Positions 36,852-55,178 of a stretch of DNA of 64,000 nt are shown in pieces. The position numbers were made by a program, and so were the translations under genes. The stretch's first letter is position 1. Each line of letters begins with the position of its first letter. The notes under the pieces are model-generated. The model made no database searches. It was not told the origin of the DNA and saw only the letters and a program-made list of their open reading frames with translations. Source of the DNA: Armatimonadia bacterium (GTDB taxonomy: Bacteria; Armatimonadota; Zipacnadia; Zipacnadales; UBA11051); assembly GCA_039683575.1 (NCBI GenBank), contig JBDKRC010000196.1, positions 1-64,000 on the forward strand. The letters are read 5' to 3'.

Positions 36852-36946
36852 TGTAGATGCTCCCGTGCGCCTGATGCCCCTCAGGCGCGAGCCGGCAATG
36901 CATACGTACACATCAGCTGTAGTAGCCGTGTGTATGGCAGCCGCAT

Positions 36947-36971
36947 ATTATACCATACAAACAAATGTTTG
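36947..36971 (-). promoter_or_regulatory. uvrB extended -10 promoter with a candidate LexA (GAAC-N4-GTTC type) box
   Basis: Minus strand TGgTATAAT (36955-36947) next to the palindrome CAAAC-AAAT-GTTTG (36958-36971). Confidence 0.55.
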
Positions 36972-36983
36972 GGGAGAGGCGCG

Positions 36984-38933
36984 CTATTTCAGCCCAAATC
37001 CGCCCAGGCTGATGGAGAAACGCTGCGTGTCAGTGGAGTAGACGAGGTTGATCTCGCGTGACCCGAATAGGCGCCCGAGCGAGAGTTCCAGGTCTTGGTA
37101 CTGCGAGTTCTCGAGATCGTAGTACGTACCAGTCAGGCCCCAGCGCCACTTTGGGTCCATGTGATAGTCCAGAGTGGCGTAGCCGTACAGACCTGAAGTG
37201 GTGAGGTCATAGGTACTTGATAGGTAGGCATTCCACTTGCTGCCATAGGCCCGTGCATCGAACCCGAAGACGTGGTTCCAGCCCTCGTCATCAGCGTCTC
37301 CGTGCCGCAACTCGGCGCTATAGTCAAACCCGAAATGCAGCTTGCGGCTCGCCTTGTGGTCCAGACGCAAGTCGGCGCGAAGGCTGTTTTCGGCATATCC
37401 CCCCGTGTCCCACGAGTACACGTTGCTGATCGACGGCTGCAGGGTAGTAGCCTTCCCCCAGGAGCGTTCGCCGAGGCTCAGTTCCGAGAACAGTTCGTTG
37501 GCAAAGACAACGCCCTCATCGGCCGCATACTGCCGCACGCCGACGGAGGTGCCAAGCCGATAGGCAAGATTGTGGCCACCTATCCGATTGGGCTCGGCGA
37601 GCCAGTCGGCAAGGGCGCCCCAAGACTGCTCATAGTCATCGGGACCGTCATAGTACCCCCGGAGGCTCAGACGCCCCCGGTCACTGTACCGCATTATATT
37701 CGCGTCGCTGTAGATACTCTTGTGGTCCGGCAGGGCCAGATCGAAATATCCGGAACCGTCACCGAACATCGGCCTGGAATCCCGCCACTCGAGGCCCCAG
37801 TCAGGCTTGGTCAGCCCCGAGACTTCCACAGTGCCTTCGGCACCGCCCGCCGACCTGTACTCCTCAGCGATGGCCAGTGACCACCCGTCCCGTGAGGTAA
37901 AGGAACTGGAGCGCGCGCCACGCTGGATCTTTATCGCGCCGGTAGCGCGGTCTGTCACACGATAGAAAAAGGGGAAGTCGATCGCCACGTCGCCTTCGGA
38001 GGTTACGCCCAGCGCCTGCGTATTGCTGGCGCCGCTATACCCTGGCAACCCGATGATCCAGTATGGGGGAAAAGTGAAGATCTTCTGCTCCTGCACCCAC
38101 AGCGCGGCGTGCTTGAGCACGACCTTCTCATTCACAAAGAGGCTGATACTCTTGGCAACGAGCCAGCTGTCTGCCTCGCCTTTGTTCATTTTGAACGCGT
38201 CGGTAGGTACATCCCATTCCGTGGTCAGCGGCCGCAAGCCAACCAGATCGAAGTACACCCGCTCAAGGCGCTCCTCGCCGAAGCGGCGCACGATGCCACG
38301 CCGGCTGATCAGGTCAAGGAATACGTCCTCGCCTTTGAGTTGCTGGTCACCACGACGTATGATGACATCCTGAGCCTTGATCGTCAGGTTTTCGACGTTG
38401 ACCTGCAACATCCCCCCGCATTCCAGCACGAGCTTCCCAAACCTGAGCTTAGCGCAGTCACGAGCCTCGATGGCCCCGGCGTCGAGATTGTAGCCGACCC
38501 ATCCCCCCGTGATGTCCACCACACGGGCTTCGCCCTGGGCAGCTTCACCTTCAGGCAGGAAGTCAACATATGCCACAGCGCGACTGTCTGCGGCCTGAAT
38601 CGTAACGGTTGCGGTGCCGGGGGTGGTGCTGGTGACGAGGATGATGGCGAATCCGCCGGAGGTACGACCAGTAAGGGAGTCTTGCCTACCCACGCTGCTA
38701 AAGCTCAGCAAGCCCAGATCAGTGTGGGCGACAAACTGCGTGCCATCAGGAACGCTGTGCCCTCGCTCATCGCGCATCTCAACCCGCAGGCGAGCCTGAC
38801 TTTGTCCATCAGCAGGCACTTGGCGAGGAGTGACCGACACGTTGACACGGTAGGTCCCTGCACGCTCAAGTTGAGCCCACGCAACGGAAATAAGGAGGCT
38901 GCCGAGGGTGAGCAGGGCCAGAATGCGTTTCAC
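36984..38933 (-). CDS. LptD-like outer-membrane beta-barrel with N-terminal invasin-type Ig and OstA-like domains
   Basis: Signal peptide; VPADGQSQA..TPGTATVT (Big_1-like); beta-jellyroll-like segment; PPYW...DFPFFY; amphipathic aromatic beta strands to the C-terminus. Confidence 0.7.
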   Translation of the reverse strand: MKRILALLTLGSLLISVAWAQLERAGTYRVNVSVTPRQVPADGQSQARLRVEMRDERGHSVPDGTQFVAHTDLGLLSFSSVGRQDSLTGRTSGGFAIILVTSTTPGTATVTIQAADSRAVAYVDFLPEGEAAQGEARVVDITGGWVGYNLDAGAIEARDCAKLRFGKLVLECGGMLQVNVENLTIKAQDVIIRRGDQQLKGEDVFLDLISRRGIVRRFGEERLERVYFDLVGLRPLTTEWDVPTDAFKMNKGEADSWLVAKSISLFVNEKVVLKHAALWVQEQKIFTFPPYWIIGLPGYSGASNTQALGVTSEGDVAIDFPFFYRVTDRATGAIKIQRGARSSSFTSRDGWSLAIAEEYRSAGGAEGTVEVSGLTKPDWGLEWRDSRPMFGDGSGYFDLALPDHKSIYSDANIMRYSDRGRLSLRGYYDGPDDYEQSWGALADWLAEPNRIGGHNLAYRLGTSVGVRQYAADEGVVFANELFSELSLGERSWGKATTLQPSISNVYSWDTGGYAENSLRADLRLDHKASRKLHFGFDYSAELRHGDADDEGWNHVFGFDARAYGSKWNAYLSSTYDLTTSGLYGYATLDYHMDPKWRWGLTGTYYDLENSQYQDLELSLGRLFGSREINLVYSTDTQRFSISLGGFGLK

Positions 38934-38970
38934 TACAGATGGTTACTCCGCGGCGGTGTCGTTAGCAGGA

Positions 38971-39008
38971 CGCCCTCGCCAGCCCTGCAACAGAGCTTGG
39001 CGAGGGCG
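38971..39008. repeat. GC-rich hairpin inside the cluster
   Basis: CGCCCTCGCCA...TGGCGAGGGCG 11-bp arms; no U-tract. Confidence 0.5.
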
Positions 39009-39038
39009 ATGGTTGCGCGTGTGGGGCTACGCCTGACG

Positions 39039-40103
39039 CTATGCTTCCGCGTCGATTGCGGCCGAGATGGCCGCCGGGGAGACGGCGCCGCTCGTGTAGA
39101 TGACGAAGATGCGGTACTGATAGGTGTTGGTGCCTGTCAGCAGGTCGTCATCGTTCAAGAAGGTGCGACCGGCACCGACTGAACCGCGGTCGATACGCGT
39201 GAACGAGCCGCCGTTCACCGCCCGCTCGATCCGGTAGCGTTGGACCGTGAGTGTCGTTCCGGTTGGCTCCTGCCAACTCAACCGGATCGTACCGTCCAGG
39301 TCCTGGACGCGTACGTTGGTCACGGGGAGCGCGTTGGGATTGACGCCAGTGTCTCCGCCGCTGTTACCACTGTTGACTGCCACGAGAAGCCCCACCAGAA
39401 GGGCTCCCAGCAGCACGTACTTGTAGCCCTTACTGCCGGTCTTCTTGGCTTTGGCTATCTCAACAACGTCAGCACGACCGGAGAGGGTGGCCGCTGCTTT
39501 TGACGCGGCGTTGCGGATTGCTTCCTGAACCAGGACGGCCTCAGATCCGGTATAACGGGCGCGAGGCGTGCTCGCTCCTGAAACACCGAATGCCCGCAGC
39601 ACCTTCGGCTCAGCTATGGGCTCGTCAGTGGTTGGATTGAGGTTGGCCGCCACATCGTACATCTGCCCCGCCAGGATCAATTCGACCGAGACCGGGTCCG
39701 ACTTGCGTGTGAAGGACTGAATGGTGGACATGACGATGTAGTCGGCGTCAAGGGCATGGCCAATGCTGAGGGCCGTGGCCAGATCGGCGGTCCCTTCCTC
39801 TACATCCACCTGACGGATGCGGCCTTCCCCGACTGCCCGCCTTACGCTGGGCGAAGTGGGCGAGAACTGCAGCGCGTCCATCCCCGGCGTGTCATCGATT
39901 GCCATCGTGAGAGCGCCGAGAGCCCGCTGGCCAGCGTCACTTGGGACGCCCTCGGCAGCCACTGCCACCGGGAACACCAACACGGTCTTGTGGTCTTGCG
40001 CAAAAGCCATGCCTGCCCCAAGCGGCGATACAGTGGCCAGTACTAGCATAGCCAAAGCCAGGCAGATTCTGCGACTCAAGTAGTGCGAACGGATTGCCTT
40101 CAT
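39039..40103 (-). CDS. Exported protein: CsgG/TolB-N-like alpha/beta domain, internal hydrophobic helix, FN3 domain
   Basis: Signal ending AFA-Q; KTVLVFPV..IGHALDADYIVMSTI; YVLLGALLVGLLVAV; IRLSWQEP..YRIER..YQYRI. Confidence 0.7.
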   Translation of the reverse strand: MKAIRSHYLSRRICLALAMLVLATVSPLGAGMAFAQDHKTVLVFPVAVAAEGVPSDAGQRALGALTMAIDDTPGMDALQFSPTSPSVRRAVGEGRIRQVDVEEGTADLATALSIGHALDADYIVMSTIQSFTRKSDPVSVELILAGQMYDVAANLNPTTDEPIAEPKVLRAFGVSGASTPRARYTGSEAVLVQEAIRNAASKAAATLSGRADVVEIAKAKKTGSKGYKYVLLGALLVGLLVAVNSGNSGGDTGVNPNALPVTNVRVQDLDGTIRLSWQEPTGTTLTVQRYRIERAVNGGSFTRIDRGSVGAGRTFLNDDDLLTGTNTYQYRIFVIYTSGAVSPAAISAAIDAEA

Positions 40104-40211
40104 GCTTGTTACTCCCTCCACGGGCGCTGGGCACCAGGCCCATGCGGATCGACACAGACGATTACATCGAACGGCTGAAGCCCTTGTAGCAGCCCAACGC
40201 GACGGCTGCCC

Positions 40212-43073
40212 CTAACGACTAATCTGCAGCGGCTGAACCACAGTGACCGCCTGCCCAGTCTCTTGCGACTTGGCCACGATCTCACAGAGGTACCGGCCGC
40301 TCGGGACCTTGTTTCCGCGGTTGCTGCGACCGCTCCACAGAACGGTATTCTGACCGGCAGTCGAAGCGCGGTTGGCCGCAACCTGCCCGACGACGATCCC
40401 CGATATGTTGCGGATGCGAATGTCAACCGCAGCGTCGGCGCTCAGCGAGTAGCTGATGGCTGCTCCGCCCTGCGCGCTCTGAGTGGCAACCACCGAGCTC
40501 ACCGCGAGGGCATTGGCCCCGCGTGGCTGCACCACGATCCGCAGGGCCCGCTCAGTCGCCTGAGTGCCGGTACGGAAGGTATAGGAGCTCGTGGTGCGCA
40601 TGTAGCGCCGGTCACCGGTAGCCTCGTCGACCAGGGTGGCGATCAGGCTCGACGGCAGCGTCGACAGGTTCGGCCACGTTACAGTCGCAGTGCTGTTTGC
40701 GGCGTTAGTCTTGACGATCAGATTCCATTCCTGCCGCTCCTGGCCCGCGCTGCGCACGTCCATCAGGTATGGCATACCAAGCGCGCTTGAGCCCGAGTAG
40801 AAGGCGGACTTCAGATATACGCTCTCTTGCTTGATGCTTGCGGGCGGCTGAGGCACGTCATAGCGGTCCAGACCAGCCACCGCATTCTTCTTTACCGCCG
40901 CACTCTGAGTCACGAGCGGCAATCCCGAAATGCCCACCTGTACATCGAATTCCCAGCCGTCTTTCTCTGCAGCCTTTGGCTGCGGTGCGCCTGTCTCGGC
41001 CTCGGCCGGACTGTACTGGTTGGGCGGCTGGAACATCAGCGTGCAACTCTGGCGAGCAAGTACCCAGTAGCCCATGTACGGGTCGAGATAGGTATCTGCC
41101 GGCGTTGCTTCCCAGGTGTATTGATTCGTCTCCGGATCGTACGCATAGACGGTGGAAAGCAGCATGTTCCGCGCTACCGCTTCGTCGAGTGACCAGTCGC
41201 CGCCGCTCTGCCCCGCCACGCGTACCTCATCGAGGCGCACGCCAGTGGTAAACGGATTACCAATCTGGTTCCAGCCGGGCAGTAGGTCCACGTTGTACGC
41301 GATCGAGCTATCCACTGGCTCGGCCCCTGCGGGCATGTAGACGGGCTCACGGTTGCGGTTCAGGAGCCAGTAGCCGGCGCCGGGCACGATGGCCGTGACG
41401 TAAGGGTCAGGGAACCAGCGGTACTGATTGCCCTGAGGGTCGTAACGAATGAGCGAGGCAGGACCGCCGGCCAACAACGAGCCAAGGCTCTGGAAGACGG
41501 TTTCAGCATCGTTATCCGGGAACTCGTAGGGTACCGAGACCATCTCCAGACCCAGGTCCGCGTTCGGCAGCGGGTTGAGCACGGGGATAGCCGGGATATT
41601 GATGGTCCGGCTGACGACTTTGCCGCGCGGGCCCGTGAAGCGCACCTCCGCATGCCCGGGGCGAGCCGCTGTAGCGACGACCTTCCAGTCGAGGTTCTTG
41701 ATCTCATTGCGCTGAATGATCCCGGCATTCTTTGCCAGCGATTCTCCGGGCGCCAGCTCCAAGCCCACCGGCAAGCGCACGCGCACGCTTGCATCATACA
41801 GCGGAGAGCTGCCGAAGTTGTCCATGTAGGCTGCCAGCTTGAACGGCGAGTTGCCGTCTTGGTCGACTAGGTCATGCGCCTCATTTTCCGAAGTAGCCGG
41901 GTCGTCCTCACCCGCCTGCAGTGAGTACGGCGCATATGCCATGAAAGCGTATGGGGACGTGTAATCGGCGGCCGATGAGCCGAGCCCATAGTAGGTCACA
42001 TAGCGCCGCGAGAGCCCGGGTCCGAGGTCGCGCGGCTGCCAGGACACTGCATAGGCCCAGTCTTCGTCGATTATCGACGCCTGGGTATTCGGGGTGAAGT
42101 AGTACTGCTGATCGGCGCCCATGTTCCGCATCTGGCCAAAGGAGATGCTATCGGGCGGACCGGCGGCGTAGTTGGCGATGCCGGCGTTGTCAACTTCGCT
42201 GCCGGTAAGCACGCCACGCAATACAACGTTCGGAGCCTGCGCGTTGTCGTAGGCGACCCAGCTATCGGGCAACAACTGATTCGTGCTTCCGACAGAGGGG
42301 ATAGTCGTCTCTGTAGTGATGACGCTCTTGTCGGGGAGGATAATCGCGCGGCCGTCGTACTGGCTCTGCCCGAAGGTAGCGTCTATCAATGTCCGCAGCC
42401 CAACCTGGTGGGTCGCGGAGGTCGTGTTGGTGACGATGTACTCGAACTGAACGGTGTCGCCAAGGACGGTGGTTACCTGCCGAACCTGGATCCAGTCCGT
42501 GACCTCATCCAAATCGGCTTGACTGGCCGGCACGCGGAAGACGCCCGAGACGTCTCGGCTGCCATTGGTCAGGACTGAGGGCCACAGGCTCAGGAGATTG
42601 GAGATTTCCTCAACGAAGCCCAACTCCTCAGCCAGAAAGTGCGGGTCAAAGATGCCACCCACGTCGGGGTCTGCCTCATTGCTGTCCACCGCAATGGAGA
42701 CCTTACTCGTGTAGTAGTAGCCGACGTCATCATCTTCGTATTGGGCGACGTTGCTCGCAATGACCTTATCCTCGTCGTTGGCGTGTGTGGGATTGCCACC
42801 GACAGGACTTTCGGTCGCAGTTCGGATCTGCACCCGGCCAGCTGGCTGGTACATGTAGTCGGTATCGGTAGCCGACACCGCGTTCCTGATCACACCAGGG
42901 TATTCCGCCCGAAGCTTGATCAGGGCGCGCGAAAAGGTGGGCACTTCGGCCGTCGTGAAGTTGGGCGCCAGTCTGGCCTGAGCCCACACAATGCCAAGTG
43001 CCACGGTCGCTAAGGCTAAAGCGCCTACAGTGACGCGTATCGCTGCCGATCTCCGATTACTGTTGCGATCCAA
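40212..43073 (-). CDS. Large exported protein with the shared C-terminal module (FlgD-Ig-like end)
   Basis: AGAGGAG SD, TTG start, signal peptide; GWNQIGNPF, YMRT, ISYSLS..IRNISG..WSGR..PSGRYL. Confidence 0.8.
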   Translation of the reverse strand: MDRNSNRRSAAIRVTVGALALATVALGIVWAQARLAPNFTTAEVPTFSRALIKLRAEYPGVIRNAVSATDTDYMYQPAGRVQIRTATESPVGGNPTHANDEDKVIASNVAQYEDDDVGYYYTSKVSIAVDSNEADPDVGGIFDPHFLAEELGFVEEISNLLSLWPSVLTNGSRDVSGVFRVPASQADLDEVTDWIQVRQVTTVLGDTVQFEYIVTNTTSATHQVGLRTLIDATFGQSQYDGRAIILPDKSVITTETTIPSVGSTNQLLPDSWVAYDNAQAPNVVLRGVLTGSEVDNAGIANYAAGPPDSISFGQMRNMGADQQYYFTPNTQASIIDEDWAYAVSWQPRDLGPGLSRRYVTYYGLGSSAADYTSPYAFMAYAPYSLQAGEDDPATSENEAHDLVDQDGNSPFKLAAYMDNFGSSPLYDASVRVRLPVGLELAPGESLAKNAGIIQRNEIKNLDWKVVATAARPGHAEVRFTGPRGKVVSRTINIPAIPVLNPLPNADLGLEMVSVPYEFPDNDAETVFQSLGSLLAGGPASLIRYDPQGNQYRWFPDPYVTAIVPGAGYWLLNRNREPVYMPAGAEPVDSSIAYNVDLLPGWNQIGNPFTTGVRLDEVRVAGQSGGDWSLDEAVARNMLLSTVYAYDPETNQYTWEATPADTYLDPYMGYWVLARQSCTLMFQPPNQYSPAEAETGAPQPKAAEKDGWEFDVQVGISGLPLVTQSAAVKKNAVAGLDRYDVPQPPASIKQESVYLKSAFYSGSSALGMPYLMDVRSAGQERQEWNLIVKTNAANSTATVTWPNLSTLPSSLIATLVDEATGDRRYMRTTSSYTFRTGTQATERALRIVVQPRGANALAVSSVVATQSAQGGAAISYSLSADAAVDIRIRNISGIVVGQVAANRASTAGQNTVLWSGRSNRGNKVPSGRYLCEIVAKSQETGQAVTVVQPLQISR

Positions 43074-43115
43074 TACTGTCAGCTCCTCTCTACGTCGGAC
43101 GGGGTGCCTGTGCAG

Positions 43116-46100
43116 TTACCGTGTTACCGAGAATGGATGGATTGCCTGTACAGTCTGTCCATCCTCGGCCCGAGCGGTAATGCGGGCGAGATATCTGCCC
43201 GACGGAGCCTTCAAGCCGCGTTCGTTGCAGCCGTTCCAGACTGCGGTCTGACTCGTCCCCGCGGCCACCGAGCGTTCAGCGACTCTGCCGATCAACATAC
43301 CAGAGATGTTGCGAATCTCCACGCTCACGTTCGACTGGCGCGTCACTGAGTAGGTGAACATCACCTGTCCCCCGCGAGCTGATGCCGACGAGACGGAATT
43401 GACCGTCAGCAAAGTGCTCTTCTGGTCCGAGGCCGTGATGCGCAGATGACGCACTCCCGGCTCAGCCATGGTGAACGTGTAACCGGTGGCGGTGCGCATG
43501 TATACGCTGTTCCCACTATCGAGGTCTTCCATTCGCATGCTCAGACCGCGTGGTAGGGACGCGTTCAGACGCGGCCAAGATACGGTGACCGGGACGTCTT
43601 TCAGCCGACACGACACCTCAACATCCCATTCCTGTTTCGTCGAGGCGGCGCTGCGCACATCCTTTGCGAGGGTACCCTCGCTGTTGGGAATGTACATCCG
43701 CAATGCGTCGACCAGCGGCGGCGGCTCGGATACGTCCACCCCAAGGTCATAGCCATCGGTCGCAGCGGCACTGACGCCGATATAGTTGATCGGGTCCTCA
43801 TACTTGCCAGCACGTGCTTGCAGTTGCAGCAACCAGTTGTCTGTGGTGCCTTGCACTGGCTTGGCAGTGGTCTGCCTCTGGCGCGTCGCGACGATCTGTG
43901 CAGTCGTGGAAGTGTTGTGCACGACCAGCGTCGCGTCCTTGCGCACGTGGAGCCAGTAGCCCTTCAACGGCGCAAGCGTGTCTTCAGTCGGGTCGGTCGG
44001 GAAATCGTAGTAGCCGCCGCCTGCGTTGCTGACGAAATCGTAAAGCACACCCTCGGTAACCGGGCTGTTGGTCGAGTCCATCGCCTCACGCAGGTCTTGT
44101 CGTCCGTTGGCACTCACAAACTCGACGCTACCCCAGTCCACGTTGTCCTCATATGGATTCCCAATGAGGTTCCAGCCCTTTGGTTGGTCTGAGCCGTAGA
44201 TGAGCTTGATGTCATAGCTCGCGTCGGTGAGACCGTTGGCAGTCACGCTGAGCATGCCGGTGGTTCGCAGGCTCAGGAAGTAGCCGAGACCTGCAGGCGG
44301 CTTCGCCACGAGGTTGTCGGGCGGGGCGAACCCTGCGAACTCGTCAGGGTACAGGTGGTACTTGCTTGAGCGGCTGTCGGTGGGAACCCATCGCAGCAAG
44401 GACATGTTCTCCAGCGGCACGCCAAAGACCACAGCCGGATCAGCTTCGCTCAGGTCTGGATATGGAAGCGCAATGATGTGTAGCCCTGCTGCGATGCTCG
44501 GGGTGGCAACGCGGAAGTAAACGGTAGCCCCCTTCGAGGGATTGCCCGCCTGGTCAGAGACCATCATGCTGACCTGGTGACGCGTGCGCGTCAGATTCGA
44601 CAAGACAAAGCTTATCTGCCCCGTCTCGTGGTCAACTCGCAGGTCGGTTGCTGGTGAGATTGCCACCAGGTTGGTGCCATCGGTCTTGACAACAGCCTTG
44701 CCGTCATATTTGGCAACAAAGGTGTCCCAGTTGATCTCGCCGCTGTCGGACAGGGTGGCAATCACTCTGGGCGAGGCACTGGTAATGGTGCTGTTGTTCA
44801 GGGGGAAGTCGATGACGATCACCGGCAGGTCGTCGTCCGTCTCCTGGCCTACCCGCAGCGACAGCCGGCCGCCCGCGTACGGCGTGTCATTGCCTTCGTC
44901 AATGTCAGGGAACTCCGTCTGGTACTCGTCGATGGTGTACTTCCTCGCCATGACCTTGAGCAGGCTCTGCAGCGTCGAAGGGGCGCGCGCGGAGTCTTCG
45001 GAGAGAAGCAATGCCACCGCACCGGCCACATGTGGCGCCGCCGCCGAAGTACCCATGAACGGATTTAGGCCATATCCCGCAGCCGCCGCTGCGCCACCAA
45101 TGGTGACCGCATCGGGAGCCAGGATGTCGGGTTTTCCACGTGTCGTGCCCACACCCAGCTTGTACGACGAGAACGGCTCCATATGATCAATCTGGACCGC
45201 CGCCAACTCCGGGGTCGCGGGCGGGGAGACGATGAGATTGGTGCCACGGACTGCGCCAACCGCATACGCACCAGTAGCTTCCGCTGGCACCGCCAAACTC
45301 TCGTCACCGACGCGCAGGTCGCGACTGGCAATATCGAAATTGGGGGAGAAGTACTGCAGTTTGACCGCGGGGATCTCGCTCTCCGCCGGGAGATTCGCGT
45401 TGACGTATTGGATCCGCACTACGTACTGGCCAGCCGTGCGGATGTCAACCCAAAGCTGCTCCTGCGGCGGGTCGTCACCATTCTGGGTCACCGCGGAGCG
45501 AGTGATCTCTCGGGTGCCAGTGCTGTCGAACAGGACAATATCAAAGTCGTTCGCAGTCTCCCCACCGTCGCCCGGCATATACCAGGAGAGATAGACTTGA
45601 AATGCGCCGACCGGGAGGTCATAGCGCAGTTCGTCCGTCGAGCCATCTAGCTCTACGTATGAGTCATCGTCGGTGTTCTCGGCAATGCCGGACCAGTGCT
45701 GCTGAGCCCAGTTCCCTGCAGCGTTGACCCAGAAAATCCCAGCCTCGCGTGCCCGGTTTACGGCCTGTGAGGCCCGGTGTGTCCCATCAAACGGTCCGTC
45801 CGCGAAACCCAGCGACATGACCACTACTTGGACCTGCGTGCTGATCAGGTAGGTCACAGCGCTGTCGATCGAGAGAGCACTGTCAGCGGCCACGAGAGTC
45901 ATGTCACAATCGGGCGCCATGTCGGCGACGATCTGAGCCACTGCCGTTCCGTGTGCGGTCGTGAACGCGTTGTTGTCGGACCGGTAGTTGACTATATCAC
46001 TGGCAACTACGGGAACCTCGGCGTCCAACCCTAAGAAACCCTCGTCAACAACGGCCACTTTCACATTCTGGCCGGTAAAACCATTGAGTTGCATCGACTG

Positions 46101-46547: not shown

Positions 46548-46623
46548 GTACGTACCTCCTGCCGGCACGCCCGCGCCGGCTACTGTTGTAATGCTTTGTG
46601 GACTGCGATACTGCTTCACGACA

Positions 46624-47766
46624 TTACTCCGTACTACTGGATGGTGCGCCGATCCACATTCCGCTCACTCGTCCCCATGATTCCCGCAGGTACGCTGCCC
46701 AACCCGTGATCGCCGCCAGTTCGAACTCTTTTGCGTATCCGGCCGGCACTTCCTCAACGGTCGGTGGGTAGTAGATCCCCAGGCCCGGGGTTTCCCCGCC
46801 CTGCCCAGCCCCCTGCCATCGCGCCACCACCATATCATCCACCGCCGCTATCACCTGCGCGCTCGCCTGGCTAACCTCTGCATTGGCGGTATTGCCCTGC
46901 AGGCGCGCGGCCAACTCGCGCACGTCACACAACTCGTTCTTCTCGCCCCAGCTTCTGGTACGGCTGCGCACGAATGTCATCGTCGGCGCGAGCTCAACCA
47001 GATGGCTTCGTAGAGCCGCAGTCAGTGTACTGAGCCCCGACGATACCGCTGGTAACCGCTCCAGGTCGAGCGCAAGCAGCGCGACGGGACCGTCACCGGG
47101 CATACCAGCCTCCACCACGTTCCGCGCAACGTCCACTGGCTGTGAGTTGCTGGACGCCAGTGCCTCTGACCAGGCCAGACCAGGGCTGTAGATGAGCCCC
47201 GGAGCGGCGGTGAGGAATCGGCACGTGCCCCGCAACTCATACGCTACTTCGAGACTGCCGCCGAAACACGTGTCGAGCCCAACCAGATCCAGCGGGCATC
47301 CTAGCCCTGCAACGGCCGGCTCCAGTTCCTGTCGCAGCGACCGCGGTGGCAGCCCTGCCGCTCCCTGCGCTCGGAGTAACCCGCTGCCATGCCCCATCAC
47401 CAGCAGGGCATAGTGCTTAGCTGGCAGCGTGTCCAGCGCTGAGGCCACGAAAGATCCCAAAACGCCCTTCACTGAACCCTTGGGTAACGGCGCCTGGTCG
47501 TCGGTTCGAGCCCCGTGGGCCCTTATCAGACAACGCTCAGCCGAATTGCGGTCCACCTGATCTGGCAGCATGATCATCGCCAGATTGTAGCCCTGCTTGC
47601 GAGCTGTATCCGCAAGCTGGCTCTGGTAATGCTGAGCGGCCTCGGTCAAGCCGCCTCGGGCTTCAAGGTACGCCAGTATGGTCCATGCCGGCTGCGCAGA
47701 TGCAAGTCCGTGCACCGCAGCAGCCAGCATGCATAGGGTCAGGATGCAGACGGTGCGGCTGTTTAT
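46624..47766 (-). CDS. Clostripain-family (C11, clan CD) cysteine peptidase
   Basis: WTILAYL, PAKHYALLVMGHGSG (His), DLVGLDTC (Cys), SLEVAYEL, GLGIYYP. The start is uncertain: ATA 47766 gives a full signal peptide; the first ATG is 47730. Confidence 0.8.
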   Translation of the reverse strand: MNSRTVCILTLCMLAAAVHGLASAQPAWTILAYLEARGGLTEAAQHYQSQLADTARKQGYNLAMIMLPDQVDRNSAERCLIRAHGARTDDQAPLPKGSVKGVLGSFVASALDTLPAKHYALLVMGHGSGLLRAQGAAGLPPRSLRQELEPAVAGLGCPLDLVGLDTCFGGSLEVAYELRGTCRFLTAAPGLIYSPGLAWSEALASSNSQPVDVARNVVEAGMPGDGPVALLALDLERLPAVSSGLSTLTAALRSHLVELAPTMTFVRSRTRSWGEKNELCDVRELAARLQGNTANAEVSQASAQVIAAVDDMVVARWQGAGQGGETPGLGIYYPPTVEEVPAGYAKEFELAAITGWAAYLRESWGRVSGMWIGAPSSSTE

Positions 47767-49652
47767 CTTCGGCCCGACCTCCCTGCACCGGTCCAGCCGC
47801 CGTGGCGCGCCGGGATCGGCGTGCGAACCCCTGCACTCGTGGGCGTCGGCGGCGGCGTCAGAGCAGTTGTGAACTTCCGCATCTCGCTGTAGAGGAAGCC
47901 GGACTTGCCGTTGTAGACGGGCCTATGGGGGTCTGCGCTCTGCCGCGCTCCCACCCGCCACCAATAGGTAGTCTCTGCCGACAATGGCCCTCGCAGCACG
48001 GCACTCTGCGGCGTTGAGGTGGTACCAGTCGTGCGGGCAATCGCTGTCCGGAACAGCGGTTCGCTGGTGCCATCTGGATCGCTCTCAGGGAATACTTCAA
48101 CCTGGTATTCATTCGCCCCAACCGTCGACTGCCAGGTGAAGGTGATATCCTCGGTGGTTACGCTCGTAGAGTTGGCAGCCGGCGTGGAGCCAAGTACAGG
48201 CGGCACGAAGAAGGTAACGGGGCCACACGCGGCGCTTGCCTCGCTGATCGCATTCGAGGGATCGACTTCAAGGTTCGGCTCAGGCAGGTCAACCACCTGG
48301 GCGGTGCCGATTGGAGGGTTGGTGCCGGGCGGCTGCAGCGGATCGATGATCCGGCGGACCCGATAGAAGTACCGGCTGCCAGCGACCAATGGATTGTCGA
48401 CGTACGCGTATGTGACGGTGCCCTGGTCGATCTCCCCATCCTCATTGCGGTAGTCGAACTCGAACTCGGTATCGGCGAATTCAGTCGTTAGTGCCTCGTC
48501 GCTGAAAACGCTGAAGCCGGGATCGTTCGTGACGGCTATGATGTTCGTGGCCGAAGTCAGGAAGTTCCTGTTGTTGGTGCCGCGGTAGACTACAAAGCCA
48601 TGGGTTGTCGCGCCCGCGGTCGACCCGGTGTGAATGCGCAGTTCGATGGTCGGTACCGCGCCAGGCGCCTCCTGATTCATGAAGCAGTCTACTGATGAGG
48701 GGCTGGCCGAGGTTGACCCGGTACCGATAGCAGCCACTCCAACAAGCAGCAGAAGCGCTGCCAGCATCTGACTGCCGCGCTTAACCTTCTTGCTTCGTTC
48801 CTCGGCGGCCATCGCACTTACAGGCTTGTAAATACGGTAGATCCGGTCGCCGGTCGTGGGTATGGCGCCCTGAACCGCACGGGCGGTGGACATGCCAGCC
48901 TCGGCGTCCGCGATGCGGATGACGCCGACGCGCCGCATGATTACCTGCTCTACGTCCGGCTGCCATGTCGGCCGCATGACCAGCATGTCATCGCCGCTTG
49001 AGATGCCGTCGTCCGTTCCCAGGTTGATGTTGATATTGCCCTGGTCATCAACCATCTCTACGGCACCGCGGCGCACCGTCGCGCTGAGCATCTGCTCAAC
49101 GCCGGCCTCAGCCGCCTGCCGCATTGCCTCATGCGTGACCTGAGCCACGTCGCCACTGAACCCTGGGATCGGCTTGGTCTGGATGCTTACCGCCGCGCCG
49201 TCCAGGTATTCGCCGATGGCTACGTCGAGCAACTGCAGATGCAGCACCACGCGCGCCTGGCCGTTGCTGGGGTCGACCCGCAGGTCAGCCAGATTGCCCA
49301 CGAGGACTTTCTCAACATGCAGGCGCTGACCTAGTCGCACCTGCTCCGGAGTGGATAGCGGCGGCTTCATCCGCAGCGCCTGCATCTCCCGGTCCAGGTC
49401 CACTGTCGAGGTGACAATGTACTCCTTGCGGTCCTCGAGCGCCAACGCCGCGGCGGCCGTGACCTCGCGCATGAGCGCGGGCGTTGCGCGGTTTGTCAGG
49501 TCCTGGAATGGCACCACGGCTACTGCCGGGACATTCTGGGCGGCTTGGCCAAATGCCGATGGCAAGTACACCAAGCCCTGGGGGGTGAGCATCGCCACCA
49601 TAATGATGTAGGCGACGATGCGACTCACCGAATTTCTGCGTAACTGCTGCAT
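47763..49652 (-). CDS. Exported protein: CsgG/FlgT-like domains, internal hydrophobic helix, FN3-like domains
   Basis: Signal ending AFG-Q; AVAVVPFQD..LGQRLHVEKVLVGNL; FlgT-C-like ININLGTDDGISSGD..VGVIRI..GDRI; MLAALLLLVGVAAIG; YFYRVR, FTWQST..YQVEV..YWWRVGA. Confidence 0.72.
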   Translation of the reverse strand: MQQLRRNSVSRIVAYIIMVAMLTPQGLVYLPSAFGQAAQNVPAVAVVPFQDLTNRATPALMREVTAAAALALEDRKEYIVTSTVDLDREMQALRMKPPLSTPEQVRLGQRLHVEKVLVGNLADLRVDPSNGQARVVLHLQLLDVAIGEYLDGAAVSIQTKPIPGFSGDVAQVTHEAMRQAAEAGVEQMLSATVRRGAVEMVDDQGNININLGTDDGISSGDDMLVMRPTWQPDVEQVIMRRVGVIRIADAEAGMSTARAVQGAIPTTGDRIYRIYKPVSAMAAEERSKKVKRGSQMLAALLLLVGVAAIGTGSTSASPSSVDCFMNQEAPGAVPTIELRIHTGSTAGATTHGFVVYRGTNNRNFLTSATNIIAVTNDPGFSVFSDEALTTEFADTEFEFDYRNEDGEIDQGTVTYAYVDNPLVAGSRYFYRVRRIIDPLQPPGTNPPIGTAQVVDLPEPNLEVDPSNAISEASAACGPVTFFVPPVLGSTPAANSTSVTTEDITFTWQSTVGANEYQVEVFPESDPDGTSEPLFRTAIARTTGTTSTPQSAVLRGPLSAETTYWWRVGARQSADPHRPVYNGKSGFLYSEMRKFTTALTPPPTPTSAGVRTPIPARHGGWTGAGRSGRR

Positions 49653-49763
49653 GGGGTGTGCTCTCCCTCCCACAGTATCTCGGCACGGCAAATGGCACGG
49701 CGACGGCAGTATATCATGCACTTCTTCAACTGTAAACGAGACGCGCGCAGCCCCCAGAGGCGA

Positions 49764-52700
49764 CTACCGCGCACCCTTGTATAGCGGCATAACAGCCCGG
49801 GCTTCCTGCCCGCTGTCGGTGCGGCCGATGATGGTGACCAGGTAACGCCCGTTCGGTGCAGTGTTGCCCCGGGCATCACGGCCGTCCCACAGCAGCGTGT
49901 TCTGGCCGGCGGCCTGGTGCTCACTGTCAGCCAGTTGCCTGATCGTGCGGCCCGCGATGTTGCAGATGACTGATGTCACCTGCGCCGGACGCGACAGCAC
50001 ATAGCTCACTGAGATGGCGCTGCCGTTGGTGGACGCTGCCATCGGGCTGATCGCCAGTTGGCCCAGGCCCTGCGGCGTAACCACGACCTGCAACTCTCGC
50101 TCGGTGTCACTCGCCGTGAACACATAGCTCGAGTTCGTCCGCATATACACCTGCTGCCCCGTCTTCGTGTCCACCAGCAGCGGTCGCACGTCCTTGGGCA
50201 GTTGCGACAGATCCGGCCACCCAACCCGCACCTTCTGCCCCACTTGGTTCGTATAGACCTTCAGTTTCCAGGTGTTCTTCTGGCCCGTCGGGCGAACGTC
50301 TACGCCGTAGTTGCCCGCCGAGTTTGACCAGCCGCTGTTGTCAATGGCCGTGTACACGTAGGCGCCCATGGCAGGAACCGGAGGCTTGGCCTGGTCCAGG
50401 TTGAAGTCGCAGCCCTCGGTGGCGCCAGTCGCGGCTCCCAGGTACGTCGCGGTGTCCGCGGTCCCCGCAACTGCGGTCTTCAGTTGCAGCAGCCACCCAT
50501 TTTCTACGCTCGGCGCATACGACCGCTCTTGCCCCGCTGCCAGCCCGCCGACGCTCTCGGTCAGGATCAGGTAGCATGGCTGATTGGCCTTGAGCCAATA
50601 GCCGGTGTACGGGGACAGCACGCCGACGGTCTGGTATCCGCCCAGTACGTACGCATACAGCCCCGAACCCAGCATTCCTCTCGACAGTGCCTCCTGCAGC
50701 GTGTACACCGACGTACCTGAGCGAACGCTCCCGGTGTAGAAGTCAATCCGGCTCTGGTGCGGGCAGCCGACCAGATTCCAGCCCGCGGAAAGCGGGATCT
50801 CGACGGTGTCCGTAGAGGCAACGCCCTCCACCGACAGGTCCGCCGAGGCCGTCAGGTTCATCCAGTAGCCTGTGCCCAGGCGGAACCGGTCAGCCGGAGC
50901 TTCCGGATACAGCCGGTAGCGCTGCCTCGTGGTCTCCCATGTCGCCATGCGCAGGCTCGAAGAGCTCACACCGAGCATGGTCGCGGGGTCAACATCACTG
51001 TAATCCCACGGGAAGGATACCAACTGCAGGCCCTTGGGGAACGTGTGCAGGGCGTCCATCGTGAAGTTGACGTTGTACGTCGTCGCTCCACTCTCGACAG
51101 TTGCCTGCTGGCTCGTCGGCTGGGCCGTCATCCCGATCTTCTCTGCGACGACGGTCAGTTCCCCGGAAGGCACGTTGTCTACCAGGAAGTTCTGCTCGAT
51201 CCCATTCTCATCTTCCGTGACAACCGTGCTGCTGGTGGTCGTCTGGCCAACCAGCCTGTCGCCGAACATCAGCCGGACCGTCACGCCGCCTATGAAGGCG
51301 CCGGTTCCTGCGCTGACCACGCGGCCGGCCACTTTTCCTGGCGGAGCCGTCTCAAGGGCTATCGGCGGATCAACGTTCAGGGTCGTCGCCGGCTCGACGG
51401 TGACGCTGCGCGGCGTGGAGACGCTGTAGCCGGCCGCTCCCGCCGTTAGCGAATACTGCCGCGGCGGCAGGTTCAGAGTCGCGTCGCCATTCTGATCCGT
51501 GTAGGCCGTGACGGTGGTGCCGGCGCTGTCCACGGCGCTTACGCGAGCGTTCACCACGGCCTTACCGTCAGTTGCCGTGACTACTTTCACGTTCACGCTG
51601 CCGTTCGCGGCATCCAGCCGGAAGTCAAGCGTGGTGGTGTCGCCGACGCGCACCACGGCCTTGGACTGCTTGGACCCGTAGGAAATCTCCGCCCCGTTCG
51701 CCGTCACCAGGTACTCGCCTGGAGGGATGTTGGGCAGCATGTACCGACCGTCTGCGCCGGTGTAAACCGTGGTGGGAAGCTCGTCCTGTGACGGCGGGTT
51801 GTCCATATCCGGATCCGGAACAATCGACACCGCGACACGCGACAGTGGCTCCTTGCTCGTTCGGGACGTCACCGTGCCGGCAATCGCGCCCGGCTTTTCC
51901 TTCTCGATCGTGAAGTCAACCGTTCGCGGTAGCTGTCCACCGTGGACAAACTCGCCCTCGTAGTGGTCAATCGCTGTATAGCCTGGCCGGACTACGTCGA
52001 TGTTGTAACGGCCCGGCGGCAGCCCCTGCACGATGTAGGTACCGTCTTCCTGGCAACGCACGGCGTACTTCACAACATCGGTCCCGGCGGTCGTGGTCAC
52101 GCTCACCCGGACCACAGGTGTCGGGTCATTCACTGCCTGCCCGGCGTCGCTAACCGAGAGCACAGTCCCCTGGAAGCCGCCAGTCCGCGACCAACATGCA
52201 AAGTTGTGAATCAAGTGGCTGCGGTGGTTGCGGCACCGGGACGGGGTAACGTCGTATCCACGATGTATCTGCTCGAGGCCGAAGGATAGGAAAACCACCT
52301 TACCGCCCAGAGTATTCCCCGTATACTCGTATCGCACGCCGACGCAGGGCCCGAAAGCTGTCCCCTCATCGGCGGCGGCGCCATAGATCTTTGTCGACCC
52401 CAGCGGCGTAAGCGAGTCCGGCCGGATGGACCACTGCGCAGCATCCGTGTACCATGGGCTGCTCGGCCGTGTCACGCGTGCTGACTTCAGCGGCAGTGGC
52501 GAATCGTCGCTTGCCGTCCAGTTGGGCCAGTCTCCAGCGTGGGAACCGCCGCCCGCAACCCCCGGGACATTCCATGCGTCGTCCGATACCGGATCGTTCC
52601 CCAGGCCACCCACCCCGAATTCCTGTGCCGTCCGCTCCATGTTGAAGGGGTTAGTGCCGTTTGGCCCAACAGCGCAGTCAGCCAGGAAGCTGACTTGAAG

Positions 52701-54881
52701 TATGTTGGTGACAAAGCTGTTCGACTGCGTGCCATTTAGCGTTAGCGCCCAGACGATGTCCTCGCCACTCATGAACAGACGCCCGCCCTGCCGGACGAAA
52801 TTGCCTACATCGGCCTGAACCGATGCGTCCATGATCGTGCCATCGGCAATCCACACGTTACCCGTGTGAGGGGCGGCCCAGATCACGGCCCGGTCGGCCA
52901 CCGGTACCGCGCGCGTGGCTACAGCATCGGGGTTGGTTGCGCGGGCCGGGTCCAACTGGTACTCGATCGTTGGCAGGTAGTACTGGTAAACGGTCTGAGG
53001 AATCGCCCCACGGCAGATCACGCGCCACACGTCGTACATGCGCGCCGCACTCAAGTTTTGGCTGCCGCCGACGCCGCCCTGAATGGTGTCGTAATCAATG
53101 GTCGATTCGACACCTCCATAAGTACTCGGGTTATACGTGTAGTACGTCTCCACGTGCCAACCCGCGGCATAGTCGTTGTTGTAGCCCTGCCCAAGCGCGT
53201 AGAGATAAGACTGGCCCTCGCAGTAGTCATCCACGAACAGGACGTTGTTGCGGGGCGAAAAAGTGCGCGTCGAGAAACCGTACACGTCGTCGTACGTGAC
53301 ATAGTTCCCGACCTTATCCACCACCATGATGTCGATGATGTAGTCATGCCCACCATTCACGGTCGGCGTCTGCCACGTACCCACGTACTCTCCCGCCGTG
53401 GCATCGTACTGCAGGGGAATCCGTCCCACCGTCTGACTGTCGATCTCCAGCCACCTCTCGCCGCCTTGGAAGCTTGAGTCGTAGTAGTGTCCGGACTCTA
53501 CGTCATAGATCCGGGGAGAGATCTCCGGGTCTTTGAACAGTGCCATAACACTGTAAACGCCGCTGTCACCGTCATAGACCGGAACCGAAACGGTGACCTC
53601 GCCGCCCGGTGACGCCAGCCGCGGGGAGGCTGACGGCAGTTCCGACGTCAGCGTACCATTTTTGAACTTCGCCAGGATCGGCGGAGTGACATCCGACTGC
53701 TGAGTCATCCAGATGTCAGTCAAGCCGCTGCGGTCTGACGTGAACACGATCCGGTACGGTGCCCCGGTCATGTTGAGCGTGAAACTCGGATCGGTGTCGT
53801 TGCTCGACTCTGTGGACACGGGCAGCGTCTGCAAGGGGCTGGAGACTTCGCCCTCGCCCGGCATTCGCAGGATATTCCAGTCCCCGCTCGTGTCGCCGGC
53901 GTCCGCCGCGCGCGTCGAAGCGAAGGCGATGGCATACCCGTACTTGGCATCCTGCGGATCGGTCGGATCGGGCCGGAAGGCCGGCTCCTTGTCGTCCGCC
54001 GTGGCGTCACCGCCACCGTTGCTGATCTGCTCTATCTCCGTCCCATCAGGGGCACAGATGAAAATGCGCTGCACCCCGCCAGCATCGCGAGTGAAAGCCA
54101 GAACTCCGCCAGACGGCGACCACGCCGGATCGGTATCATCAGCCACACCGCTCGTGATCGGCTGGATCAGTTGCGCGCCTGAAGATGCGACCTTGTAGAT
54201 GTCCCAGGTCCCATTCAAGTTGCACTGGAAGGCGATCCAGTTGCTGTCCGGCGACCACGTCGCGTGCAGCTTGTCGCCTGCGCCGAAGGTGATCTGCCGG
54301 ACGATGCTCGGATCCCGAACCTCGACCGTGAAAATCTGCCAGATCCCGTTTACCTGCGAACTGAAGGCCACCAGACGGCCGCCCGGGTCGTATGAAGGAT
54401 CAACCTGGTCGCCGGCCATGCTAAGCAGCTTATACTGCTCGCTGCCGTCCGAGCGCATGATCCACAGATCATCATTGGCATTGGCAGGAGCCGTCGCATC
54501 GATCTGCCCGTCCGCAGTGTCATTCGCGGTGGTGTTGTTGACGGCATCTACGCCGTTGCTCACAAACACGATTCTGTTCTGAGTCGCGCCCGGCGAAGCG
54601 TTCGGCTGCTTCTCGTACGTGGCGACCGCGGTGGGCGTAAGGTCCCTATCCAGGTCAGGACCCGTCTGACGCGTTTGCATCAAGGCTGGAGGCGTGGGCA
54701 GGTTCTGCCCGATGATGGGGCGAGCCGAGGGATTCTTGGTGAAGAGACTGAGGCCATTTACGGGGATGAGAGGACCGGCCGCTCGTTCGGTCCTTGCGGC
54801 CGAGACCGCGGAGGTGAAGAACAGATACAGGAAAAGAGCGAGCAGGATGGGCGCGGAAAACTTGAGGAGGCCCTTCTGCAA
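49764..54881 (-). CDS. Very large exported protein: TolB-like propeller, alpha/beta domain, carboxypeptidase-regulatory-like repeats, shared C-terminal module
   Basis: TTG start after AAGGGAG with a signal peptide; PD40 repeats; VLFVDD..GGRLFMSG..GKVVFLSFG; several G.IAG.V...DG.Y....PPG.Y repeats; GWNLVG, YMRT, FlgD-Ig-like end. Confidence 0.8.
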   Translation of the reverse strand: MQKGLLKFSAPILLALFLYLFFTSAVSAARTERAAGPLIPVNGLSLFTKNPSARPIIGQNLPTPPALMQTRQTGPDLDRDLTPTAVATYEKQPNASPGATQNRIVFVSNGVDAVNNTTANDTADGQIDATAPANANDDLWIMRSDGSEQYKLLSMAGDQVDPSYDPGGRLVAFSSQVNGIWQIFTVEVRDPSIVRQITFGAGDKLHATWSPDSNWIAFQCNLNGTWDIYKVASSGAQLIQPITSGVADDTDPAWSPSGGVLAFTRDAGGVQRIFICAPDGTEIEQISNGGGDATADDKEPAFRPDPTDPQDAKYGYAIAFASTRAADAGDTSGDWNILRMPGEGEVSSPLQTLPVSTESSNDTDPSFTLNMTGAPYRIVFTSDRSGLTDIWMTQQSDVTPPILAKFKNGTLTSELPSASPRLASPGGEVTVSVPVYDGDSGVYSVMALFKDPEISPRIYDVESGHYYDSSFQGGERWLEIDSQTVGRIPLQYDATAGEYVGTWQTPTVNGGHDYIIDIMVVDKVGNYVTYDDVYGFSTRTFSPRNNVLFVDDYCEGQSYLYALGQGYNNDYAAGWHVETYYTYNPSTYGGVESTIDYDTIQGGVGGSQNLSAARMYDVWRVICRGAIPQTVYQYYLPTIEYQLDPARATNPDAVATRAVPVADRAVIWAAPHTGNVWIADGTIMDASVQADVGNFVRQGGRLFMSGEDIVWALTLNGTQSNSFVTNILQVSFLADCAVGPNGTNPFNMERTAQEFGVGGLGNDPVSDDAWNVPGVAGGGSHAGDWPNWTASDDSPLPLKSARVTRPSSPWYTDAAQWSIRPDSLTPLGSTKIYGAAADEGTAFGPCVGVRYEYTGNTLGGKVVFLSFGLEQIHRGYDVTPSRCRNHRSHLIHNFACWSRTGGFQGTVLSVSDAGQAVNDPTPVVRVSVTTTAGTDVVKYAVRCQEDGTYIVQGLPPGRYNIDVVRPGYTAIDHYEGEFVHGGQLPRTVDFTIEKEKPGAIAGTVTSRTSKEPLSRVAVSIVPDPDMDNPPSQDELPTTVYTGADGRYMLPNIPPGEYLVTANGAEISYGSKQSKAVVRVGDTTTLDFRLDAANGSVNVKVVTATDGKAVVNARVSAVDSAGTTVTAYTDQNGDATLNLPPRQYSLTAGAAGYSVSTPRSVTVEPATTLNVDPPIALETAPPGKVAGRVVSAGTGAFIGGVTVRLMFGDRLVGQTTTSSTVVTEDENGIEQNFLVDNVPSGELTVVAEKIGMTAQPTSQQATVESGATTYNVNFTMDALHTFPKGLQLVSFPWDYSDVDPATMLGVSSSSLRMATWETTRQRYRLYPEAPADRFRLGTGYWMNLTASADLSVEGVASTDTVEIPLSAGWNLVGCPHQSRIDFYTGSVRSGTSVYTLQEALSRGMLGSGLYAYVLGGYQTVGVLSPYTGYWLKANQPCYLILTESVGGLAAGQERSYAPSVENGWLLQLKTAVAGTADTATYLGAATGATEGCDFNLDQAKPPVPAMGAYVYTAIDNSGWSNSAGNYGVDVRPTGQKNTWKLKVYTNQVGQKVRVGWPDLSQLPKDVRPLLVDTKTGQQVYMRTNSSYVFTASDTERELQVVVTPQGLGQLAISPMAASTNGSAISVSYVLSRPAQVTSVICNIAGRTIRQLADSEHQAAGQNTLLWDGRDARGNTAPNGRYLVTIIGRTDSGQEARAVMPLYKGAR

Positions 54882-55178
54882 CCGAATCACTCCCTTGGCG
54901 GGTGCTGCAGTGAAGTCTGCCAACAACTGGCGCACGTGGTAAGACGGAAGTCAGTGAGACATGCAGAACCCGCAGGACCGGTACTTCGCCCGCCAGCCAC
55001 ACCACAGAAGAATGCCTGACACACGCGTCACCGTGCCTGATAAACACGCCATCAGGTCTGCGTACGCTTTTCCCAGCTACCTGCTTGCATTGGGCAGCTC
55101 CCTCCCCATCGCCTACCCCTGTGGAGCTCAGAACCGTGTGCAAGAAGTCAATCTGCTCGCTGTTTTACCAGCGGATTC

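Follow-up and report, generated by a model that had tools for sequence, protein, structure and literature searches.

The window analysed here is a 64,000-nucleotide stretch from an Armatimonadia bacterium (Armatimonadota; Zipacnadia; Zipacnadales; UBA11051), positions 1 to 64,000 of the forward strand of contig JBDKRC010000196.1 in GenBank assembly GCA_039683575.1 (6.23 Mb in 352 contigs, 96.4% complete). It contains seven co-oriented open reading frames (ORFs), g1 to g7, all on the minus strand between 36984 and 54935. Conserved within the phylum Armatimonadota, the seven genes make up a single envelope gene cluster and encode a predicted outer-membrane barrel of LptD-like build (g7), two homologous proteins with a PelC/CsgG/FlgT-like domain (g2 and g6), three large proteins with a common C-terminal tail (g1, g4 and g5), and a peptidase (g3):

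49764-54935, minus strand: g1, 1723 aa; signal peptide, TolB-like PD40 propeller, CarboxypepD_reg repeats and shared tail (49767-51068)
47763-49721, minus strand: g2, 652 aa; PelC/CsgG/FlgT-like domain with an extra inserted domain, hydrophobic helix, FN3-like domains
46624-47730, minus strand: g3, 368 aa; clan CD Peptidase_C11 with conserved His/Cys dyad
43116-46619, minus strand: g4, 1167 aa; S8 subtilase, Ig-like domains and shared tail (43119-44480)
40212-43073, minus strand: g5, 953 aa; N-terminal part of ~500 aa of no known family, then shared tail
39039-40121, minus strand: g6, 360 aa; N-terminal helix (residues 14-36), PelC/CsgG/FlgT-like domain, hydrophobic helix, FN3
36984-38933, minus strand: g7, 649 aa; signal peptide, Big_1, beta-jellyroll-like domain, outer-membrane barrel

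An earlier note on this DNA had described the same inventory, namely seven co-oriented genes for three large proteins with a long C-terminal module in common, a clan CD cysteine protease, two similar CsgG/FlgT-like proteins with a helix and FN3, and an outer-membrane barrel, and each of these descriptions is borne out by the results below. The note had further credited every gene with a signal-peptide-like start, which is uncertain for g3 as annotated (see below).

A single strong homologue of g7 occurs in 40 of 41 genomes of the order, distributed over seven families, and 11 of 15 loci hold the full set of seven genes in unchanged order (of the other four, g1 is missing from two and a contig end interrupts two), with g1 orthologues scoring E=0 in most loci. 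A profile of g7 matches 242 of the 251 genomes sampled in the phylum as a whole, in most of them once and at full length, and homologues of g1, g2, g4, g5 and g6 lie directly upstream of g7 in 16 of 20 loci from other families. Proteins g1, g4 and g5 are 1:1 orthologues across the phylum, and g2, g3, g6 and g7 are essentially single-copy in this genome. Homologues that bear names are labelled Armatimonadota, Armatimonadetes or Candidatus Zipacnadales. The linkage that the earlier note had expected between tail-bearing proteins, the barrel and the CsgG-like genes is conserved in these loci, but the C11 gene that it included is found in none of the 20 loci outside the order, and by this distribution g3 is an order-specific addition to the cluster.

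The g3 product matches Peptidase_C11 (PF03415; E 7e-12, 46 bits against a cut-off of 25.8) and no NCBIfam model, and its predicted dyad is kept across 14 orthologues (His114 in 13, Cys155 in all 14). The ATG at 47730 leaves only a 13-aa remnant of a signal peptide, whereas orthologues have clear signal peptides. Upstream in-frame codons, beginning with an ATA that overlaps the g2 stop (47730-47770), would complete the signal peptide, which suggests that the g3 start is non-canonical and coupled to the g2 stop.

The g7 barrel and the PelC/CsgG/FlgT-like proteins

The predicted model of g7 (predicted local distance difference test score, pLDDT, 81.4) consists of an Ig-like domain, a beta-rich domain and a barrel to which DSSP assigns ~21-22 strands:

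38556-38849, minus strand: Big_1 domain, invasin/intimin-type (g7 residues 29-126)
38049-38522, minus strand: beta-jellyroll-like domain (g7 residues ~138-295)
37002-37988, minus strand: outer-membrane barrel (g7 residues 316-644)

The N-terminal domain is recognised by Pfam as Big_1/Invasin_D3 and aligns closely with the invasin/intimin type in VIA-align (Z 15.5, root-mean-square deviation 1.0). When the model was searched against the PDB with Foldseek, the top 15 matches were all LptD or LptDE entries, with E values of 1e-14 to 1e-10 for full-length entries and only 1e-5 to 1e-6 for barrel-only LptD entries and the FimD usher. As in the LptDE of Proteobacteria, a beta-jellyroll-like domain precedes a large barrel. 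Previously characterised LptD barrels have 26 strands according to a recent preprint (bioRxiv 10.64898/2026.10.03.756453), and g7 differs from the proteobacterial protein in its ~21-22 strands, its extra Big_1 domain and its failure to reach the Pfam thresholds for LptD and LptD_N.

A second LptD candidate is present in the genome, which encodes LpxC and makes lipid A, and which has LptA/LptC-like genes elsewhere. Protein P0198 (863 aa, contig C345) has as its nearest Atlas clusters those bearing LptD_N or named 'LPS-assembly protein LptD' (LPS, lipopolysaccharide; score 0.98), and it is present in at least 53 of 61 sampled phylum genomes. It is probably the canonical LptD of this genome, separate from g7; the evidence for it is the Atlas result together with the reading of its translation, and Pfam, NCBIfam and PDB phmmer searches were all empty for the candidate LptDs on contigs C110 and C345. 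Two profile links connect P0198 with g7: in the g7 family, the C-terminal ~90 residues of the barrel can be aligned with the end of P0198 (hhalign probability 90.8, E 1e-6), and the jellyroll region of P0198 matches the g7 homologue of one genome (E 1e-6). The possibility that g7 is the sole LptD of the genome was rejected, P0198 being the better candidate by its Atlas score. By its predicted model, g7 is an outer-membrane protein of LptD-like build existing beside a separate, probably canonical LptD, and it is best read as a distant LptD-family paralogue and not as the LPS insertase.

Proteins g2 and g6 are not significantly similar by BLASTP (E 0.48), and Pfam and NCBIfam give an FN3-like match for g2 only and none for g6. 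Their families are nevertheless homologous by profile comparison (hhalign probability 99.8, E 4e-30, 316 columns). The predicted model of g6 (pLDDT 87.6) begins with an N-terminal helix, after which come an alpha/beta domain, a hydrophobic helix and FN3; the last three are listed here together with the corresponding helix of g2:

39483-39989, minus strand: g6 alpha/beta domain, PelC/CsgG/FlgT-like (residues 45-213)
39372-39425, minus strand: g6 hydrophobic helix (residues 233-250)
39045-39320, minus strand: g6 FN3 (residues 268-359)
about 48717-48767, minus strand: g2 hydrophobic helix (about residues 319-335)

The top Foldseek matches of the g6 alpha/beta domain are FlgT (3w1e, E 5e-8), the LPHT ring, PelC (5t0z and 5t11, about 1e-6, template modelling score 0.54-0.66 on target), CT253, CsgG (4uv2, 1e-6) and GNA1162 (1e-5); LptE, of which g6 might be an analogue, is absent among the matches listed. 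The two proteins are thus homologues that combine a PelC/CsgG/FlgT-like domain, a very hydrophobic helix and one or more FN3 domains, the likeness to PelC, CsgG and FlgT being known from the predicted fold of g6 and extended to g2 by homology. PelC and CsgG have an N-terminal lipobox cysteine, whereas neither g6 nor its 35 aligned relatives have one where the signal-like region ends; also unlike those proteins, g2 and g6 have no Pfam CsgG match and continue after the domain with an internal hydrophobic helix and FN3, and no Pel or curli genes lie near the cluster. A complex prediction for g7 (residues 130-649) and g6 (residues 40-225), run with alignments, gave 0.20 against a mark of 0.32 and counts neither way. 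Elsewhere in the genome, a 282-aa ORF on contig C113 (29463-30308) shows weak similarity to the N-terminal part of g2 (E 2e-6) and resembles short, ~250-aa relatives of g6 that lack FN3.

The shared tail and its C-terminal domain

The C-terminal ~430 residues common to g1, g4 and g5 share 30-32% pairwise identity. In Pfam and NCBIfam searches, g1 matches PD40/TolB-like repeats, four CarboxypepD_reg stretches and a C-terminal FlgD_ig, g4 matches Peptidase_S8 (PF00082, 68.7 bits against a cut-off of 21.8) and FlgD_ig, and g5 matches FlgD_ig only, its N-terminal part having no match in Pfam or PDB profile searches. The g4 translation displays what we take to be the D, H and S motifs of subtilases. 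The true start of g1 is uncertain and was placed at 54881 in the earlier note; a 'GVIVLQKG'-like stretch (54881-54935 here) is conserved before the signal peptide in g1 orthologues (loci L011-L024), so that either the true start or an N-terminal extension of g1 is conserved.

An alignment of 38 tails from this and related genomes divides the tail into domain A (~170 aa), domain B (~150 aa) and an Ig-like end domain (~90 aa), which in g5 are placed as follows:

41034-41558, minus strand: tail domain A, about residues 506-680, with GYW...GWNxIGxP...GYWL; borders approximate
40509-40961, minus strand: tail domain B, about residues 705-855; borders approximate
40215-40481, minus strand: end domain, FlgD_ig and like the C-terminal domain (CTD) of the type IX secretion system (T9SS)

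Domains A and B have no Pfam match and no PDB match, and domain A is the sole part of the tail kept in every lineage sampled. In the Atlas, domains A and B together fall nearest to unnamed Armatimonadota clusters, and T9SS-type clusters score 0.81-0.83, which is under the trust level. Neither domain A nor the g7 profile, when used in word-indexed searches, reached past Armatimonadota-named proteins, a result limited by the method that does not prove restriction to the phylum. The end domain matches FlgD_ig in 38 of 38 tails, with weak matches to CHU_C in five and to Por_Secre_tail in three, and a PDB profile search with the tail found only FlgD and the CTD of PorU (E 0.005). The tail thus resembles a T9SS CTD only weakly; the end domain is called the CTD below.

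A hidden Markov model of the tail matched 37 stop-to-stop ORFs in this genome. The whole tail is present in seven (three in the window, two subtilases on contig C144 and two giant ORFs on contig C238), domain A alone in one (contig C110), and the CTD alone in 29, each time at the extreme C-terminus and in 26 of the 29 as a Big_5+FlgD_ig ending. The heads of these 29 are diverse and include peptidases (two M6, S8, two C14, C11 and C39-like), nine beta-helix/Disaggr_assoc/NosD-type proteins, five PD40 propellers, NHL and cadherin-like proteins, and six that are unrecognised. Of the models for T9SS cargo CTDs of type A (TIGR04183, PF18962) and type B (PF13585), TIGR04183 has two matches in the genome, both close to its 23-bit cut-off, and the tail-bearing proteins have no lipobox.

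The CTD is not present in every lineage that has the cluster. Among 61 sampled genomes, FlgD_ig matches range from 0 to 40 per genome, and five of the six genomes without any (G042, G073, G075, G082, G085 and G095) keep the g2/g6-type N-terminal domain. In three families that are CTD-free or CTD-poor (f15, f30 and f29), the g1-g2-g4-g5-g6 cluster is intact and g1, g4 and g5 stop after domain A or part of domain B, without a CTD; g1 ends likewise in a fourth family (f35). The genomes with such CTD-less cluster proteins have 0-3 FlgD_ig matches in all. Since the barrel and the g2/g6-like genes persist in CTD-free genomes, these parts of the cluster do not depend on the CTD, and since g1, g4 and g5 are conserved and persist without it, they are core parts and not cargo. 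Domain A is the universal common piece of g1, g4 and g5, and domain B with the CTD is an extension that varies by lineage and accompanies CTD tails on other proteins.

Two further loci carry tail sequences. On contig C144 (4673-11519) there are two tandem S8 subtilases, both with the full tail; the upstream one loses its CTD reading frame ~230 nt before the next gene, and a Por_Secre_tail match lies in a frame containing one TGA, so that either a frameshift or an overlap is present. Contig C110 (3204-15913) has a second one-strand envelope cluster, which encodes, in order, 436-aa and 1108-aa proteins without a known family, a 758-aa protein with domain A as the sole tail part at its end, a pair of CarboxypepD_reg proteins, an LptC-like protein, an LptA/OstA-like protein, DUF4159 and RmlD.

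Possible functions of the cluster

According to recent work on other phyla, barrels of the LptD family export surface lipoproteins. The distant LptD homologue of Borrelia, BB0838, is reported to be required for the flipping of these proteins (bioRxiv 10.1101/2022.12.21.521298). In Bacteroidota, a second preprint describes an LptD/A/E complex to which as many as eight further subunits are added (LptN, P, Q, R, S, T, U and V), among them a 22-strand partner barrel, a ring of Ig domains beneath LptD, a protein that spans the outer membrane with alpha-helices and, above the barrel, surface lipoproteins, all encoded by mostly unlinked genes (bioRxiv 10.64898/2026.10.03.756453). A third paper also concerns LptDE and surface lipoproteins (PMC12065857). 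We tentatively favour, at somewhat less than even confidence, the explanation that the products of the present cluster assemble on an LptD paralogue into an outer-membrane complex of several subunits, comparable to these translocons that are reported to export surface proteins, with the CTD as a lineage-variable add-on. The g7 barrel would be the centre of the complex, g2 and g6 a ring- or helix-anchored platform, and g1, g4 and g5 would dock through domain A. By analogy with the LptD-family translocons, the role of the complex would be to bring proteins to the cell surface or keep them there; in lineages with a CTD it is common to g1, g4 and g5, here also to 29 other ORFs of the genome, and g4, with g3 in this order, would be candidate processing peptidases.

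To the extent that the two preprints describe them, the LptD translocons of Bacteroidota and Borrelia resemble this cluster in having an LptD-type barrel amid extra envelope subunits, the fold of g7 being LptD-like, and the alpha-helical outer-membrane subunit of the Bacteroidota complex may be compared with the very hydrophobic, unusually flanked helix of g2 and g6. The present barrel differs in being a paralogue beside a probable true LptD, the genes are clustered where those of Bacteroidota are described as mostly unlinked, and the tail-bearing proteins lack the lipobox of the surface lipoproteins described there. No description of this cluster was found in the literature searched, many subscription papers lying outside the search. 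The folds of its parts are known, and so by now are translocons of several subunits centred on LptD; within that kind, an operon-encoded complex with these partners and this tail around a second LptD-family barrel is a new form.

Several observations weigh against this explanation. VIA-align places the g7 barrel alike with TonB-dependent receptors, FhaC, TamA, FimD and LptD (Z 11-13.7), and because it does not discriminate, the LptD assignment of g7 rests on Foldseek and the two weak profile links. No match to Pfam LptD (PF04453) or LptD_N (PF03968) was found on g7 or at the locus, PF04453 being an insensitive model that matched only two of 14 control genomes, and a PDB profile search with g7 finds only the invasin/intimin Ig domain. 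The gene for g7 stands alone in four of the 20 loci from other families, and in families f15 and f30 the g1-g2-g4-g5-g6 cluster is unlinked from it. The internal helix is flanked N-terminally by Lys/Arg in 36 of 36 members of the g6 family and 18 of 18 of the g2 family, and with basic residues at this flank in all 54, no simple topology fits: the pattern does not suit an ordinary stop-transfer anchor in the inner membrane, nor a PelC-like domain placed in the cytoplasm. One way out would be for the helix to sit in the outer membrane and for FN3 to lie outside the cell. On a quick g7 tree of 37 rows, for which a careful search was unfinished and families f12 and f31 were not sampled, the CTD-less families occupy about two places, so that the co-variation of the cluster tails with the CTD is suggestive and not replicated evidence. 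The cluster proteins and the other CTD-bearing ORFs are not lipoproteins, unlike the substrates in the precedents, and both the protein-protein contacts and the surface location of the complex are inferred.

An extension of the LptD-paralogue complex, that it is a previously undescribed machine for outer-membrane protein export and anchoring, that the lateral gate of a dedicated g7 inserts the helix-anchored g2 and g6 into the outer membrane and that this machine, and not a T9SS, handles the T9SS-like CTD proteins of the phylum, seems to us unlikely.

We also consider it doubtful that the cluster is an export station for a lipid, glycolipid or polymer, with g7 as a second LptD-type insertase for a non-LPS lipid or lipid-linked polymer, g2 and g6 as a PelC-like funnel, and g1, g4 and g5 as accessory envelope enzymes unrelated to protein export. 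The LptD-like fold of g7 with its jellyroll-like domain would suit this role, as would its near-universal, mostly single-copy occurrence, expected of a housekeeping envelope function; one of the best fold matches of g6 is PelC, which belongs to the ring that exports Pel polysaccharide, and the genome makes lipid A and has LptA/LptC-like genes at other loci. However, neither the cluster nor its surroundings contain genes for glycosyltransferases, flippases or lipid synthesis, the flanking genes on the same strand being housekeeping genes (polA, rpsA and coaE upstream, uvrB and uvrC downstream), and the conserved partners of g7 are a peptidase, a propeller and Ig/FN3-rich proteins.

Less probable still is the function proposed in the earlier note, a dedicated T9SS-like system for CTD-dependent secretion and attachment in which g1, g4 and g5 are cargo, g7 is the translocon in the manner of SprA/PorV, g2 and g6 form rings of a pore, and the C11 peptidase acts like PorU as the sortase that removes the CTD. 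The note had recognised no T9SS core genes in the window, and none was found in this 96.4%-complete genome as a whole. No match was found to SprA/Sov (TIGR04189), which none of 14 control genomes matched either, or to GldL, GldM or GldN, which likewise no control genome matched. GldK gave generic matches only (best 52 bits against a cut-off of 350), PorV (NF033710) gave none, and PorV_fam (NF033709) reached 20.5 bits at best against a cut-off of 90, which the Bacteroides thetaiotaomicron control exceeded. PorU (NF033707) scored at most 24.7 bits genome-wide and 40.2 on g4 against 420, only CTD-like or Ig-like pieces matching. In favour of the proposed system are the negative search for a T9SS core, the 37 ORFs that carry the CTD at the extreme C-terminus, the cargo-like pattern of a uniform Big_5+FlgD_ig tail on diverse heads, the weak likeness of the CTD to that of PorU itself, and the 0-3 FlgD_ig matches in genomes whose cluster proteins lack the CTD. 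There are also parallels to the T9SS in the many secreted-type proteins with a ~90-aa Ig-like CTD distantly like its own, in the conserved components that themselves carry the CTD, and, in this order only, in a clan CD peptidase. In the T9SS, PorU and PorZ carry CTDs. Yet the proposed cargo proteins are conserved 1:1 across the phylum and persist without the CTD in f15, f30, f29 and f35, which argues against their being cargo. The barrel, in 242 of 251 genomes, and the g2/g6-like genes, in five of the six CTD-free genomes, occur in lineages that have no CTD proteins, which argues against dependence on the CTD; the C11 gene, the supposed PorU analogue, is missing from 20 of 20 loci outside the order; and the g7 barrel is LptD-like and not like SprA or PorV.

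A structural surface layer, in which g1, g4 and g5 form an S-layer-like coat that domain A ties to the outer membrane, with g2, g6 and g7 as membrane anchors, is very unlikely: these three proteins are large, conserved, rich in Ig and CarboxypepD_reg domains and joined by a common tail, and metatranscriptome contigs span the whole cluster, but the subtilase motifs of g4 and the catalytic dyad of g3 are kept and point to enzymes and not lattice proteins, no SLH or known S-layer domain was found in a Pfam scan of the cluster, and contig depth cannot rank expression.

The cluster bears on envelope building and surface-protein display in diderms beyond Proteobacteria and Bacteroidota, and on the handling of the many T9SS-like CTD proteins in phyla without a T9SS. 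It supplies concrete phylum-wide candidates, namely a second LptD-family barrel, two helix-anchored PelC-like proteins and three enzymes with a novel, common, putative docking domain, and natural 'CTD-minus' lineages offer a comparison. The case would extend the recent idea of LptD-type translocons that export surface proteins. Were the unlikely extension given above true, in which this machine handles the T9SS-like CTD proteins of the phylum, LptD-family barrels would be a general and ancient route of surface display in diderm bacteria.

Transcription and neighbouring sequence

Three metatranscriptome runs from one study contain 55-65% of the sampled words of the window, and their contigs occupy 29-30 of 30 bins of 36500-56000. 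Every junction from g7 to g1 is bridged by contigs from these runs:

38586-40624: metatranscriptome contig bridging g7/g6/g5
42080-44772: metatranscriptome contig bridging g5/g4
45325-46783: metatranscriptome contig bridging g4/g3
46924-50133: metatranscriptome contig bridging g3/g2/g1

Upstream of g1, RNA-contig cover ends at 55229 (run X3) and 55349 (run X2), and the last upstream bin is empty in two RNA runs, whereas the DNA run continues. The cluster is apparently expressed, and the bridging contigs are compatible with co-transcription, although they do not prove a single transcript. The best promoter match upstream of g1, which scores 11/12, is:

55179-55207, minus strand: sigma-70-like promoter match TTGTCA-17-TATAAT with TG, between coaE and g1; consensus match only

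The earlier note had placed all seven genes downstream of one promoter, which these matches do not show: a second sigma-70-like site precedes g2, and promoter-like sites are no commoner than in shuffled sequence (4 against 4.9), terminator-like counts likewise not exceeding shuffles.

A single contig of DNA run X1 connects 47565 with 39046 through 37 other letters, and represents either a strain without most of g3-g6 or an assembly chimera. Near the right end of the window, an ORF on the plus strand (62074-63999, 3' end open) encodes a protein that combines GH123 N-terminal domains with a CBM-like domain and has a FlgD_ig-like stretch in its interior.

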